Source of the DNA: a virus
Taxonomy: Duplodnaviria; Caudoviricetes
Strand: one strand, 5' to 3'
Virus record (IMG/VR): IMGVR_UViG_3300030095_001230
Coordinates: 1 to 38,395 of that record
Length of the DNA stretch: 38,395 nt
Shown here: positions 6,679 through 34,345 of the stretch, one piece after another
How the letters are laid out: every line of letters starts with the position of its first letter
How positions within the stretch are numbered: position 1 is the stretch's first letter
Position numbers and translations under genes: made by a program
The notes under the pieces: model-generated
Seen by the model: only the letters and a program-made list of their open reading frames with translations
Told to the model about the DNA's origin: nothing
Database searches by the model: none

Positions 6679-7845
6679 TCAATTCAAGTACCCAGCAATT
6701 TCATTTTGATCTTCTCTATTCTTATCAAAGTTTACCCATTTACCCCTGACATAATGATCTGAGATCTGTTTACTTCCATGTCCAGCATCAGCCATTATGT
6801 TTTTCTTTTTATGTGCAAGGTAATCTCTTAAAGTAATAACAAAGACTCTAAAACTATGAGGATTAATTCTTCCAACAACTCCCAGCTCACTATTAAATTT
6901 ATTTAGTATTCTATTACTAAAATTGTTTCCCTGAATAATAGTATTTCTACTACTAGGAAATAATAATTTTGTTTCTGGTTTATGCTGCATCAATAATTGT
7001 TTAATTAATATTCCCATAGGTTTTGATAAAGCAACAGTTCGCATACCAGTTGATGTCTTTGTTTGATAATGCAGTTCATTGTTACCAGTATTAACTGTTT
7101 TGTTAATGTCGATTGTATTCGTTCCAGGATTATAATCAGTAATTAATAAAGGTAAAACCTCCCCACATCTTCCTCCCAGCTCACACATTAGTCTAACCAT
7201 AACATAGTGTTGATAGTTCCATGATTTCAATTTGTCTAATAAGCCATTGATTTTCTTTAATGACTCATCGAACCCACCCTGAACAATAACTGGATCTTGT
7301 TTATTTTCCTCGTAATCTTTTTTAATAGATTTATATTCATCACGATCAACTTCTCTACATGGATTGAATTGATTTCCTAAATTATAATTAAGAGCATATT
7401 TAAATAATCTTGTTAATAAATTAAAACATTGTTTATTAGAACGCACACTAAAATTTTCATTCATATGTACATTAATTAAATTTACATCAGGAACAGTAAA
7501 ATCTTTGACATGAATATCACTAATAAAAATATTTTTTATTTTAATAGTCCACAGCTGCTTTGCACAATAATCATAATCATTAAATGTAGAAGATGATGGT
7601 GGATTTTTTCTATTCTCTAAACTTGCTCTATATTTGTTGTAAGTATCTTTAAGTGAAACAAAATCTAATCCGTAAAGATTATTTTTTATTTGCAAATCAA
7701 TCTCATCTTTTAAACGAGAGCAAGGTATTAATTCTTTTTCAGTAATTCTTTTTTTCTTCTTTGGATTTTCAGCATCTATAATTTCAAAATAATGTTTTTG
7801 TCTAGCTGTCCAATAATAAATATTAGTAGTTGAATATCGACTCAT
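6679..7845 (-). CDS. int: Tyrosine recombinase / phage integrase
   Basis: Catalytic motifs GGRCGEVL (R), TKT (K), HSFR (HxxR), AGH...DHY (H, Y); 388 aa with N-terminal extension; adjacent to attP. Confidence 0.95.
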   Translation of the reverse strand: MSRYSTTNIYYWTARQKHYFEIIDAENPKKKKRITEKELIPCSRLKDEIDLQIKNNLYGLDFVSLKDTYNKYRASLENRKNPPSSSTFNDYDYCAKQLWTIKIKNIFISDIHVKDFTVPDVNLINVHMNENFSVRSNKQCFNLLTRLFKYALNYNLGNQFNPCREVDRDEYKSIKKDYEENKQDPVIVQGGFDESLKKINGLLDKLKSWNYQHYVMVRLMCELGGRCGEVLPLLITDYNPGTNTIDINKTVNTGNNELHYQTKTSTGMRTVALSKPMGILIKQLLMQHKPETKLLFPSSRNTIIQGNNFSNRILNKFNSELGVVGRINPHSFRVFVITLRDYLAHKKKNIMADAGHGSKQISDHYVRGKWVNFDKNREDQNEIAGYLN

Positions 7846-10766: not shown

Positions 10767-10942
10767 GTTACATCTTCCAATGTTACTTGATTAATTAATT
10801 TAGTTTGTAGTGGTGTCATTTTAGGAGGATTTACTTTTCTCTCCTGACATTCTTTTTTTATTTTTTCTTCACGATCCATGTTTAACCAATCAAGTTTCGT
10901 GCAGATAATATTATCTTTAGCTATAAAATTTATTTTATCCAT
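10757..10942 (-). CDS. Hypothetical protein
   Basis: 61 aa; overlaps both neighbours in the operon. Confidence 0.55.
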   Translation of the reverse strand: MDKINFIAKDNIICTKLDWLNMDREEKIKKECQERKVNPPKMTPLQTKLINQVTLEDVTWW

Positions 10943-11814
10943 AAGCTCCTTGCTTCTTCCATTTCTTCATCCGACAAATCATTCCAATAAAAACTAGAAA
11001 AATCTGGCTGTATGTATTTTGCCAATTCTCTTGGAGAGGAAGATATTTCCAAAAGATTTTGGCGTACAGTCTGAACCATCTGAAAATGCTCCAAACAATA
11101 TTTTAAAAACTCAGGTCGCATCTTTTCACAGTTATCTTTGTGAAATATTTTGTAGCTGCCTTTTTCAAATCCAGTATGATAAATTAAGTAAATTGGTTTT
11201 TTTGTTGCAAAATGATAAAAAGCACATTGACACAAATAATTCCAATCAGGTTCTTTTGGTAATGTAACTTTATTCCAGCTGCGTGTACCATCCTTCTTTA
11301 CTGCTCCACGCCTTTTCCATTTTGTTTTTAATTCAATGGCATAATTTTTTGTTAATAAATCTGTTTTACCTTCTGTCTTAACTTCTATTCCTGGTATTTG
11401 AAATTGACAGTATTCTTCTGTGGTACTGCTTTGTGTAAAAAATTCTATTTCTGTTAATGCATCTATTCCATTCTCTACACACATTGGCAAAAGCTCATGA
11501 CAAACTTCCCATTGTTCTAACTGATCTCCATGAAAATATATTTTTGATTTTTTAAATAATGTTTTAGCGTGCAACTTTGCAGCAGCTAGTGGATTATCAT
11601 CTTCTTGTGAATTATAAATATAATAATTGACTCCCTCTTGTGCTGCATTACCAGCGTGGACATTTGGGTTCATTGTTCTTTGTGAACGCCAATCCTTATC
11701 TCTAAAAATATAATTGTGCAGCCAAACATCATTTGGCAAGTTGCATTGACTAGGGGAGAAATGACTAAGTTTTACTTTAGAATAATAATCAGGGATAAAA
11801 TTAAAGTCTGTCAT
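10930..11814 (-). CDS. PD-(D/E)XK exonuclease (RecB/lambda-Exo-like)
   Basis: SHFSPSQ, GNAA, EEY, GKTDL...IELKTK and QCAFY motifs. Confidence 0.85.
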   Translation of the reverse strand: MTDFNFIPDYYSKVKLSHFSPSQCNLPNDVWLHNYIFRDKDWRSQRTMNPNVHAGNAAQEGVNYYIYNSQEDDNPLAAAKLHAKTLFKKSKIYFHGDQLEQWEVCHELLPMCVENGIDALTEIEFFTQSSTTEEYCQFQIPGIEVKTEGKTDLLTKNYAIELKTKWKRRGAVKKDGTRSWNKVTLPKEPDWNYLCQCAFYHFATKKPIYLIYHTGFEKGSYKIFHKDNCEKMRPEFLKYCLEHFQMVQTVRQNLLEISSSPRELAKYIQPDFSSFYWNDLSDEEMEEARSLWIK

Positions 11815-30073: not shown

Positions 30074-33000
30074 ATGGAATATAAAATAGACTGGGATTTT
30101 ATTTCTTCTTTGGAAGGAAAAGGAGCAAAACATGGTTATGTACCATCGGATAATTCTGGTGTTACGATTGCTACTGGTTTTGATTTAAAAGAAAAAGATG
30201 AAAACTTTTTTAGAAGTATAGGATTATCACAAAATATTATTGATAAACTTATTTCTTATGTTGGCATATCAGGTGCAGAAGCAGAAGAATTTATTGCACA
30301 AAAACCTCTTATCTTAGAAGATAATGAAGTATCTGAAATAGATCTAGCAAGTAAAAACTTTTATGCTCACAGCATCGCAAAAGATTATAATAACAGAAAT
30401 CCTAAAGTTAAATTTGAAGATTTAGAACCTTACCAACAAACAATAGTAGCATCTGTTGGTTTTCAATATGGAAGTTTTAATCGTAAAGATGGCTCTCCTA
30501 TGAATTTTATTCTACAAGCAACAAGTGGCGATTGGGATGGACTTGTCAAAAATTTACAGAATTTTCAAGATCAATTTCCTACACGAAGAAATAAAGAAGC
30601 AGATTATTTTATAGAAAAGAGTAAAAAAAAAAGTCTAATTAAACCTGACTCAAAAATTACATTATTAGATAATGAATTAAAGCGTGAAGCTTTAACAATG
30701 GGAGGATCAGATTTTGATTTAATTACTAATCAGTATGTCGATGATAAAGTTAAAAAAGATATAACAACACCAAAGGAAAAAAGTTTTTTATCTGAAGTAC
30801 ATAATAAAATTAAAGATTTTAAATATAATATTAAAGAAAAAGAAAAATTTAAAACAAACACCTTAAAGGATGAAAAGAATAATTTAGAAGTTACACTTGA
30901 TGTACCTAAACAAATAACACCAACAAAGCATTTTGTTAAACCAGATGAAAACAAAACATTTTTTTCTGACACAACAGATAAACGATACCGAGGAAATAAT
31001 AAATTAGCTTATTCCAAGCCATATCAATTAGGCGAAATTTTTGAGTCAAATTTAAATGATATGAAGGAATATGGTTTATTTACATCTTCCTATAATGGTT
31101 TGGTTGATGATTGGGAAAAAGTTGTAGAAGAAGTAAGTCATGTATTTGGTGTAGAGATACCACACTTTGAGGATTATATTCCTGAAGTTGATGATCAATA
31201 TTTAATTTCTCCATCAGATCCAACTGGTATTGGTTTTGCTTTTAATGGAAAAGATGTTGCAGCTAAAGCACCTTATAAAGAAAAGATTGCATATTTAGAT
31301 AAAGTTATTGCACAGCTTATTAAAGATAATCCTGATAAAGCATCTGATTTTAAAGGATATGAACATTACTTTGCTTTACGTTCAGCAGAAGCAAAACAAT
31401 CACAAGAAGATATTGCGATTGCTGCGATGTATGCAGACTCAGGATGGGATAAATGGGGTGGCTCATTATCAGGTGTTGGATGGGGTGCATTACATGATCC
31501 AGTTGTTTTAGCAAGTTTACCAGTTTCCATGCTTGTTGGATGGGAAGGAAGTATTGCTGTTGCAACGATGCGAGTAATGGCTCTTGAAGCTATTATTGGT
31601 TCTGTATCAGAAACACTTATTCAAACACAAGTTGTACCTTACAAACAAAAATTAGGTTTAGATTATGACTGGGGGGATGCTTCCAAGATAATTGGTACAG
31701 TTGGATTAACGAGTAGTGTATTTGGTGGAGCAATCACAGCTGGTGGTAAAGGTTCAGTTGCTGCTTATAAAGCTATTGAAAAAACTTTAGCAAAAACTAA
31801 TCCAAATATTGCAGCAAAAATACTTGGTAAAGAATTAAACAGATTAGTAGATGAAGGTGCAGATCCTAAATTATTATTAGAATATTTAGAAGGAAGAATT
31901 GCGTTACTAAATCCAACAGAATTAGTACAACTATCAAAATCATTACCTGAAACTATTATTGTTAATCCTAAATATTCCCAAGCCATAAAAGATTTAGAAA
32001 ATAATATTTTAAATGAAGCAGAAAGTCCGATTGAAAATACTGTTGCTGGAAAAAATGAGCATAATGAAAGACACAATAAATCGATTGAAACAATACTGCG
32101 TAATGAAGAAGTAAGTATTCCTGATCAACCAATTAATAAATTAGATATAGATCCTGATAGACCAATAGTAAATCATGTTAAATTAGATCCTGATCAAATT
32201 GAAGTTGATGCAAAAACTTTTCAATTTAAAACTGGTGGAGATAGCAAAGGTGTTTTAGAAAAATTACAAGGTGTTGAAAAATGGGATCATAATGCAGCTG
32301 GTACTGTTATGGTTTTTGAAAATGCTAATGGTAAATATTTTATTGCAGATGGACATCAACGATTAGGTTTAGCAAAAAGAATTAAAGAAAAAGATCCATC
32401 ACAAGATGTCTATTTAATGACAACCATAAGACGAGAAGTAGATGGTCATACTCCTGAGAGTACAATGGTTGAAGCGATGTTAATTAATGTAATTGCTGAT
32501 ACAGCTAAAGCTCCTGATGTAGCAAGAATATTACTTAAAATGGGGGAAGCTGGAACGGCTGCTTTATTAGAAGGTCGAGTTAAACCTTCCCAAGCATTAT
32601 GGAGTAACGCTACTGGATTATATCGTTTAGGCGATGAAGGATTTGAATTTTGGCTGCAAGGAAATGTTAAAGATAATATTGCTGCACAAGTAGGACATAT
32701 TATTGATGATCCACAAGCGTCTATTAATATTTTAAAGATATTAGAAAAAGCTAAACCAGCCGATATTGTTGAAGCTCGTATGATGATTAGACAAGCTTTA
32801 TCAGCTGGATTGTATGAAACAAAACAAGTTGATTTGTTTGGTACAAGTGTCATGAAAAATACACTCTTTGTAGAACGAACAAAGGTGTACAAAGCAGCAC
32901 TAAATAATCTTAAAAAAGAAAAAGGAATATTTAAGGCATTAGTTGAGAATGATACTAAAATTAAAAAAAGTGGTAGAAATAAACTTGATACAAAGTATAA

Positions 33001-34345
33001 TCAGAAAGAGGTAGAATTAAATGAAATCGCAATCCAAAAACTCGAAAAGCTTGCCAATAGAAAAGGACAACTCTCCGATGATCTTACAGCCAGCGCAAAA
33101 CTCTGGCGTGATGGAAGCAAGCGAGAAGCAGTTGAATCTTTTAAAGAAGCTATCATTTCATCAATTAAACGAGGCGATCACAAGGGGATTGATGCAGTCG
33201 GAAGTGAACGCAATATCTATGCTTCGCAATCGAAAGCTCCAGTACGACAAAAACCAAAAGAAAATATTATAACTGAAAAGTTAGAAACTTTTGATAATCC
33301 TCAACAATCAGTAAAATTTATAAAAGAAGCTGATGATCAGTTAGAAGAACTTAAACTAGAAGTAGAAGCTTCAGGTAAAGATAAAACTTTAGATACATCA
33401 ACAGCATCTGTTAAAACCCAAGATGAGTTTTTCCAAACAACTACTGCTGAACCACCATCATCTGTTTTTGCTAAAGCCAATAAAGAGCCATCCCAATCTC
33501 TAGGAGAAGTAGATAGTTCTGTTGGTTCGGTTAAATTAATTTCAGGCACAGATCACACAGTATTACAATCGAGTAACAATGTCAAATTTTTACTTTCCCA
33601 AGCAAAAAAACAAAGAAAAAATATAGAAAACTCTTTAATTCAAATTGCTGAAAATTTTGAAAATACTAAAGTTGTTGTAAATCTTAAAAAACCAAAAAAT
33701 TTAAATGATAAAATAGCACAAAAAAAGGCATTACATGGCGATGAATTTGATGCTTCTCTTATAGGAGATATTGCAAGAGGTCGTATAAACGTTAGCTCGT
33801 TAGATGATCTTTATGCCTTAGATATTTATTTAAAAAATAATTTTCAAATAATTAAAAAAACTGATTATTTTGCTACACCTAAAGAAGATACTGGATATAG
33901 AGGTATTCATTATCAGCTTGTTACAGAAGATGGTTTGGGATTTGAGTTACAAATACATCATAAAGAATTAATTGATGTTATTGATAAACTTAGAAAATTA
34001 CCAAATGCTTCTTATAATAAATATAAAAGTGTAAGTAAATTAACTCCTGAACAAGAAGCAGATCGTATTAAAATTGCAGCTGGAGAGAAAAAAATAATAG
34101 ATGCAAAATTTGCTGAATTAGAATTACAAGCAAAAGGATTACCAGAACAACAAGCAGCTGGTGGTATGTTTGATGAGTTTGAACGAAACCAACTTAACTT
34201 AACAGATGAGGTTTTAATGGGAGATAAAATTGATCCAGATGGTGCATTAGTGCCAAATATAAAAACTTTAAAACAAGTAATTGATGATGTTGAAGATGAT
34301 GGAAATATCATTGACTTCTTAAAAGATTGTCCAGGTATAAAATGA
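30074..34345 (+). CDS. Multidomain internal virion protein: pesticin-type muramidase + TM region + ParB-like + RelA/SpoT-like synthetase
   Basis: IDWDFISSLEG..GYVP..NSGVTIATGFDL..RRNKEADY; hydrophobic helices at about 31440-31760; FIADGHQRL; DIARGRI..GYRGIHY..FELQIH. Confidence 0.85.
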   Translation: MEYKIDWDFISSLEGKGAKHGYVPSDNSGVTIATGFDLKEKDENFFRSIGLSQNIIDKLISYVGISGAEAEEFIAQKPLILEDNEVSEIDLASKNFYAHSIAKDYNNRNPKVKFEDLEPYQQTIVASVGFQYGSFNRKDGSPMNFILQATSGDWDGLVKNLQNFQDQFPTRRNKEADYFIEKSKKKSLIKPDSKITLLDNELKREALTMGGSDFDLITNQYVDDKVKKDITTPKEKSFLSEVHNKIKDFKYNIKEKEKFKTNTLKDEKNNLEVTLDVPKQITPTKHFVKPDENKTFFSDTTDKRYRGNNKLAYSKPYQLGEIFESNLNDMKEYGLFTSSYNGLVDDWEKVVEEVSHVFGVEIPHFEDYIPEVDDQYLISPSDPTGIGFAFNGKDVAAKAPYKEKIAYLDKVIAQLIKDNPDKASDFKGYEHYFALRSAEAKQSQEDIAIAAMYADSGWDKWGGSLSGVGWGALHDPVVLASLPVSMLVGWEGSIAVATMRVMALEAIIGSVSETLIQTQVVPYKQKLGLDYDWGDASKIIGTVGLTSSVFGGAITAGGKGSVAAYKAIEKTLAKTNPNIAAKILGKELNRLVDEGADPKLLLEYLEGRIALLNPTELVQLSKSLPETIIVNPKYSQAIKDLENNILNEAESPIENTVAGKNEHNERHNKSIETILRNEEVSIPDQPINKLDIDPDRPIVNHVKLDPDQIEVDAKTFQFKTGGDSKGVLEKLQGVEKWDHNAAGTVMVFENANGKYFIADGHQRLGLAKRIKEKDPSQDVYLMTTIRREVDGHTPESTMVEAMLINVIADTAKAPDVARILLKMGEAGTAALLEGRVKPSQALWSNATGLYRLGDEGFEFWLQGNVKDNIAAQVGHIIDDPQASINILKILEKAKPADIVEARMMIRQALSAGLYETKQVDLFGTSVMKNTLFVERTKVYKAALNNLKKEKGIFKALVENDTKIKKSGRNKLDTKYNQKEVELNEIAIQKLEKLANRKGQLSDDLTASAKLWRDGSKREAVESFKEAIISSIKRGDHKGIDAVGSERNIYASQSKAPVRQKPKENIITEKLETFDNPQQSVKFIKEADDQLEELKLEVEASGKDKTLDTSTASVKTQDEFFQTTTAEPPSSVFAKANKEPSQSLGEVDSSVGSVKLISGTDHTVLQSSNNVKFLLSQAKKQRKNIENSLIQIAENFENTKVVVNLKKPKNLNDKIAQKKALHGDEFDASLIGDIARGRINVSSLDDLYALDIYLKNNFQIIKKTDYFATPKEDTGYRGIHYQLVTEDGLGFELQIHHKELIDVIDKLRKLPNASYNKYKSVSKLTPEQEADRIKIAAGEKKIIDAKFAELELQAKGLPEQQAAGGMFDEFERNQLNLTDEVLMGDKIDPDGALVPNIKTLKQVIDDVEDDGNIIDFLKDCPGIK

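Follow-up and report, generated by a model that had tools for sequence, protein, structure and literature searches.

RelA/SpoT domains have been described in polyvalent proteins from (pro)phages of Spirochaetes and Epsilonproteobacteria (Iyer et al. 2017, PMC5512222). In the MuF-Apk2/IapK system a Rel toxin of the virion is accompanied by a small immunity protein that binds it (PMC12226406). The Apk enzymes are distinguished by the motifs RYT / GxN / YH from RSH enzymes with AVR / SxH / IR, and the swapping of motifs failed to switch the synthetase specificity (PMC12226406). Among marine phages, the integrase-bearing HTVC010P-type pelagiphages constitute the temperate subgroup II (PMC8477408). 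Here we compare with these systems a complete virus record of 38,395 bases and 33% GC (in the following called the window). A preliminary description of its sequence had placed a RelA/SpoT-type synthetase domain in an ejected virion protein and had pointed to such domains in phage polyvalent proteins, which are indeed described (PMC5512222, PMC12226406).

Integrase, terminase, portal, capsid and tail genes are all present in the window, as seen by comparison with PHROGs. The capsid protein is 64-70% identical to the capsids of HTVC010P-type pelagiphages, and a related cassette is carried by one Pelagibacter MAG contig. The host is likely a SAR11 bacterium. We found no cultured carrier of the cassette, and a tblastn search with the cassette matched no phage record. 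The phage is likely temperate, since it possesses a tyrosine integrase gene:

6679..7845, minus strand: tyrosine integrase (phrog_1, E 5e-22)

Elsewhere in the window, a 294-aa ORF (10930-11814, minus strand) gives a weak PHROG match labelled CRISPR/Cas-associated (phrog_1706, E 4e-5); it probably encodes a core nuclease of this phage group.

The synthetase domain resides in a long late-region gene, for which the following features were obtained:

30074..34345, plus strand: multidomain protein of 1423 aa, probable internal virion (ejection) protein whose payload slots are exchangeable (ORF and neighbouring genes)
30083..30535, plus strand: pesticin-type lysozyme domain, aa 4-154 (PF16754, 121.9 bits)
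32141..33193, plus strand: ParB-like core, aa ~690-1040, with ADGHQR at aa 758 (phrog_10691, Atlas)
33563..34129, plus strand: RelA/SpoT small-alarmone-synthetase-type domain, aa ~1164-1352 (Pfam, motifs, AlphaFold model)

The gene is flanked by genes annotated as internal virion protein (phrog_418) and as virion structural protein (phrog_684); the latter is the downstream neighbour, which resembles the virion structural proteins of phiV10/SPN1S at ~28%. Due to this internal-virion gene block and the N-terminal pesticin-type lysozyme, the 1423-aa protein is likely packaged and ejected together with the DNA. The lysozyme fusion seems to be optional, because the lysozyme appears to be a separate gene in two loci (L003:4111-4624 and L004:3926-4438), in which the long ORF begins without it and tblastn matches the lysozyme region further upstream in these contigs. 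For the ParB-like core the phrog_10691 match spans aa 708-1120, and Atlas feature matches lead to ParB-type neighbours, i.e. ParB_N/sulfiredoxin clusters (0.92-0.93); Pfam, NCBIfam and PDB sequences provided no match. At the junction of core and cassette (window ~33340) unrelated insertions of 70-150 aa occur in P0003, P0008, P0009, P0014 and P0018-P0028. An ART-PolyVal-like domain, under the Pfam cut-off, is seen in P0056/L038 and in L122.

All motifs named in the preliminary description were found near the C-terminus of this ORF: NLKK at aa 1203 (33680), DKI at aa 1212, DIARGR at aa 1232 (33767), DYF at aa 1264, TGYRGIHY at aa 1273 (33890) and FELQIH at aa 1290 (33941). A Pfam scan of the whole 1423-aa protein did not report RelA_SpoT; scanning residues 1161-1359 alone yielded RelA_SpoT (PF04607) with 35.9 bits (E 9.9e-9), above the cut-off of 27. 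The AlphaFold model of aa 1164-1352 has a pLDDT of 95.4 and a pTM of 0.89. Its best structural match is RelP (6ewz; Z 17.1, rmsd 2.6, 167 aligned), followed by Tas1 (6ox6, Z 14.6), CapRel (7ztb, Z 13.4) and FaRel2 (Z 8.5). The modelled fold together with the catalytic residues confirms the presence of a RelA/SpoT synthetase-type domain. The extent of 33660..34130 given before holds for the place of the domain but not for its start, which lies ~30 residues further upstream, at 33563.

The specificity motifs of the domain read RGR / GIH / IH. Since the motifs are mixed and published swaps did not switch the specificity, the product cannot be read from the sequence. In our judgement (p)ppApp ranks first, at somewhat less than even odds, and (p)ppGpp second, being a less probable but serious candidate; pyrophosphorylation of tRNA 3' ends and an inactive domain are each unlikely and about equally so. 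In agreement with the earlier statement that no hydrolase is recognisable nearby, no HD_4 hydrolase was detected in the window genome or in five related genomes. If the Rel domain is active, some other guard would thus be needed.

The same statement for antitoxins is probably wrong, because a conserved antisense candidate is located directly upstream of the domain, within the same ORF:

33337..33549, minus strand: nested antisense ORF of 70 aa with a GTG start, candidate Rel immunity protein (comparative frame analysis)
33559..33585, minus strand: promoter-like element ahead of the antisense ORF, composed of TTGACA, a 15-nt spacer, TG-t-AATACT and 9 nt up to the GTG

The linker ahead of the Rel domain is conserved and rich in Ser, Thr, Pro and Ala, and its minus strand encodes the 70-aa frame, which starts with GTG in the window and with ATG in most relatives. 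The upstream element might serve as its promoter; it is weak in the window, with a spacer under the canonical length, and in a subgroup of loci whose carrier protein lacks the ParB-like core it often reads TG-a-TATAAT at equal spacing. A scan with the promoter consensus returned 4 sites versus 5.8 expected, none of them at the antisense start.

In a profile search a related antisense frame was detected in 28 of 29 Rel loci, a count that is partly circular, as the ORFs had first been chosen with a Trp filter and the profiles were made from those loci, versus none of the 36 loci with Zeta or an empty slot, where no circularity applies. The sole Rel locus missing the frame, L031, is cut at the locus edge. 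A further set was assembled from 69 loci picked by their Rel motifs, of which 7 duplicates and 6 too short ones were removed. For the remaining 56 loci, ~7 of which look like strains seen before and whose tblastn confirmation included the linker, a fixed 55-codon antisense window was free of stops in 53 cases, compared to 9.9 expected from synonymous shuffles. One of the open loci appears unrelated. A shorter family member occupies two of the three loci that failed, and the third appears unrelated as well. The small frame is thus in strict genetic linkage with the Rel domain, and on the level of sequence the comparison establishes both its conservation and its association with Rel.

We favour the reading, with a probability of about 0.58, that the locus encodes an injected virion protein with a Rel pyrophosphokinase toxin, for which the antisense 70-codon frame would provide the cognate immunity protein. 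The 1423-aa protein would be packaged in the phage head and subsequently be injected along with the DNA, such that the freshly infected cell would receive its C-terminal Rel domain as a pyrophosphokinase toxin. The antisense protein would bind and block Rel and would be made, from its own opposite-strand promoter, during virion production as well as lysogeny. Owing to the separate promoter, the antidote would protect both the cell that builds the virions and a lysogen that is hit by a kin phage. A naive host would experience an unopposed pulse of toxin until the incoming genome makes the antidote. With the antidote encoded in the adjacent linker, toxin and antidote would be exchanged together as a single in-frame cassette.

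The content of the slot bears on the nature of the payload. An orthologue search with the core as query found 424 proteins, and slot types were read in the best 120 of these 424 using local profiles built from subsets of the orthologues. Among these 120, Rel is present in 60 (43 type 1, 17 type 2) and a Zeta toxin in 40, and the remaining 20 have neither of them. In five loci (L027, L040, L077, L080, L081) a third Rel-like type with weak matches was assigned on the basis of motifs (DSYR, GW, EWY) and one 14.7-bit match; it is accompanied at its C-terminal end by a separate antisense ORF. Near-identical cores hold either Zeta or Rel, and in P0014 the core is 91% identical, yet another domain replaces the linker and Rel together. 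A quick tree of 65 cores requires at least 9-13 changes of the label 'Rel plus antisense', 13 in all and 9 of them forced by strong branches. Such a distribution is typical of a polymorphic payload. The exchange with a Zeta toxin favours a toxin payload over a tuned signal.

A tuned signal is nonetheless the best-surviving alternative: the antisense gene would be real but not an inhibitor of Rel, being e.g. a superinfection or regulatory protein that shares the cassette, and Rel would be a low-level signalling enzyme that tunes the host physiology or the decision between lysis and lysogeny, as the preliminary description had proposed. The closest solved relatives by sequence and by fold are the housekeeping ppGpp synthetases RelP/YwaC, and the S/G-x-H and I-H motifs are in part closer to those of RSH enzymes. 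The distribution of the integrase points the same way, as it is present in the window and in 4 of 5 type-1 Rel records, compared to 0/7 Zeta, 0/1 type-3 and 3/5 other records; payload type may accordingly track lifestyle, but the records (G001-G018) are few and related. Against a tuning role stand the exchange of the slot with Zeta, which itself is followed by a nested +1 ORF, and the finding that the antisense gene can lie at either flank of Rel (N-terminal in type 1, C-terminal in types 2 and 3) and, in the loci examined, never occurs without Rel. Overall we regard this alternative as unlikely.

As regards catalysis, the first (ATP-binding) motif deserves attention. The usual first motif of such synthetases begins with Arg. 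In the subgroup of the window the motif is degenerate, reading NLKKPKNLNDKIAQK versus VKEMRSLIEKLNRK in the aligned RelP: K1205 is invariant and K1213 nearly so, and the Arg and Ser positions are occupied by Asn in the window, the leading position being Arg in several relatives. Rel could thus be catalytically weak or dead here and serve as a binder or decoy for a nucleotide, a tRNA or a host sensor, with the antisense protein as its chaperone or cap. The catalytic residues K1205, D1232, Y1275, H1279, E1291 and Q1293 are, however, invariant across 50 type-1 domains, the most distant of which is only 23% identical to that of the window, such that we consider a dead enzyme improbable, and more so than a tuning role.

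An open antisense frame in the window alone proves little. The same gene contains five longer open antisense stretches of 84-184 codons, and in synonymous shuffles of the single sequence an open frame was obtained in 1.2% and an open frame with three Trp in 0.025% of the cases. The comparison between loci is more informative. Ahead of sense CAn codons the wobble position is occupied by C, which gives Trp in the antisense frame, at 109 of 140 sites inside the region versus 226 of 2352 outside. Within the antisense region mean BLOSUM62 scores were -0.81/-0.85 for the antisense frame and -1.10/-1.07 for the sense frame, and within the Rel domain the order was reversed (sense -0.82/-0.65, antisense -1.52/-1.55). 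Substitutions are therefore more conservative for the antisense protein in the linker and for the sense protein in Rel, bearing in mind that conservation in the antisense frame partly mirrors that in the sense frame. The antisense starts align as ATG/GTG/TTG across loci, with a GGAG/GAGG-type Shine-Dalgarno site upstream in most type-2 and type-3 loci. The frame is kept in 36 of 36 loci whose carrier protein lacks the ParB-like core. Against a general pairing, its linker signature was seen in only 15 of 94 wider relatives of the Rel domain. That the frame is a by-product of the Ser/Thr/Pro/Ala-rich linker composition (few Tyr, His and Gln codons) and of shared ancestry is very improbable: the longer antisense stretches, the wobble positions shared with the sense frame, the relatedness of the loci and RNA contigs that are unstranded and do not support an antisense transcript would fit such an origin, but the excess of open frames with the sense protein held fixed, a C-wobble bias yielding Trp in an A+T-rich genome, the BLOSUM reversal and the aligned start codons with their Shine-Dalgarno sites argue against it.

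The antisense protein itself had no meaningful match in Pfam, PHROGs, NCBIfam, PADLOC, PDB sequences, Foldseek or Atlas, and its model, a weak beta-meander, is of low confidence (pLDDT 61.9). Between type 1 and type 2 the antisense proteins show only a weak resemblance (hhalign probability 9%, E 0.0035). The profile matched 31 gene-called database proteins, mostly on short contigs. Four of the antisense-family proteins (P0232, P0239, P0245, P0237) have differing C-termini, and some of them may be free-standing (orphan immunity) copies. With P0239 as query 7 loci were obtained, six on contigs already in the set and one (L162) again with the frame nested beside Rel; the window and 84 loci held no free-standing copy. 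In four metatranscriptome runs the region was represented only by unstranded contigs spread across the entire block, which is uninformative about antisense expression.

Open +1 frames accompany the other two payload domains. In the window the following was found:

33078..33272, plus strand: nested +1-frame ORF of 64 aa, candidate small partner protein (frame openness, start)

Its ATG at 33078 lies behind AAAGGA, and the frame opens at an ATG at 33021. At the end of the ParB-like core (aa 1013-1055), 66 of 67 loci have a +1 frame free of stops, compared to 12.5 expected, and the product has a conserved helical motif. It is absent from all 36 loci that lack the ParB-like core and went undetected in L070, SI2 and Ruegeria 45A6. 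The start varies, and the Shine-Dalgarno-like site overlaps a conserved sense motif. The frame may represent a separate gene or, alternatively, a product of +1 frameshifting that drops the toxin. For Zeta, all 20 of the distinct segments that directly follow the domain have an open +1 frame, versus 3.2 expected. The ORFs comprise 50-75 aa, often with an AGGAG-type site before the ATG (e.g. L019:7735-7887, plus strand), and were seen in L014, L018-L024, L030, L036, L044, L051-L060, L065-L068, L072, L074 and L083. They are candidates for an epsilon-like antitoxin. An antisense partner for Zeta was also considered and rejected, as frame -2 had no clean signal and the signal came from the +1 frame. 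Tentatively, and at slightly less than an even chance, each payload cassette (Rel, Zeta, ParB-like) of polyvalent virion proteins may have its small cognate immunity gene overprinted on the adjoining linker. The scheme would use the antisense strand for Rel and the +1 frame for Zeta and ParB, with toxin and antidote swapping together as an in-frame module.

Toxin domains are common in virion proteins, and the survival of the producing cell is puzzling where no immunity gene is annotated. If the overprinting holds true, it would account for toxin-loaded virions that are built without visible immunity genes. With one short nested frame linked to each of the three payload domains, the locus family offers a direct and cheap test. 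If the antisense protein neutralises Rel, it would be a well-controlled natural example of a functional antiparallel overlapping gene and would found a new family of small inhibitors of alarmone synthetases; annotation would then miss an immunity layer in phages related to SAR11 phages. In addition, the locus family makes the effect of an injected alarmone synthetase in the first minutes of infection testable. A literature search whose coverage left out most subscription papers and bioRxiv supplements returned no paper on nested or antisense immunity genes in phage virion toxins.

Compared with known systems, the carrier resembles the phage polyvalent proteins in that several conflict domains are joined in one late-region, probable virion protein (lysozyme, a ParB-like core that may be of the DdrB-like kind, RelA/SpoT), in that this architecture varies among orthologues, and in the ART-PolyVal-like match, under the cut-off, among the relatives of the window (PMC5512222). 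Unlike the polyvalent phages named there, the window is an HTVC010P-type marine phage, and the main text of that study contains no occurrence of 'antisense', 'opposite strand', 'overlapping' or 'immunity protein'. With HTVC010P-type pelagiphages of subgroup II the window shares, besides the capsid similarity, the 33% GC, the integrase and a similar late gene order (PMC8477408); the text of that report has no occurrence of 'toxin' or 'SpoT'. HTVC028P, the one cultured isolate examined, differs from the window, having no Rel, Zeta or ParB-core match in the block. The Rel domain has its fold and catalytic residues in common with RelP/RelQ, Tas1, CapRel and FaRel2. Unlike these small alarmone synthetases it is embedded in a virion protein, and its identity to RelP/RelQ, Tas1 and CapRel is 18-24%. 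To MuF-Apk2/IapK/Aph1 the locus is similar as a probably temperate phage with a Rel-type domain in a variable toxin slot of a carrier that is, here by inference, head-associated (PMC12226406). The locus was nevertheless not filed as Apk2: its N-terminus is a pesticin lysozyme with no MuF match in Pfam or PHROGs, its motifs differ from those published for Apk (PMC12226406), and in place of a downstream iapK/aph1 the next gene is phrog_684, with no HD_4 hydrolase. The carrier would be an ejection-type core protein rather than MuF, and Rel is internal, before a conserved C-terminal tail, whereas the Rel-type domain of Apk2 is C-terminal. Apk2 has a cognate protein inhibitor, and the window has a candidate immunity gene that is nested antisense instead of lying downstream. 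A Rel domain in a virion protein is thus known in kind; what is new is the set of candidate partner genes that are overprinted and matched to the individual domains.
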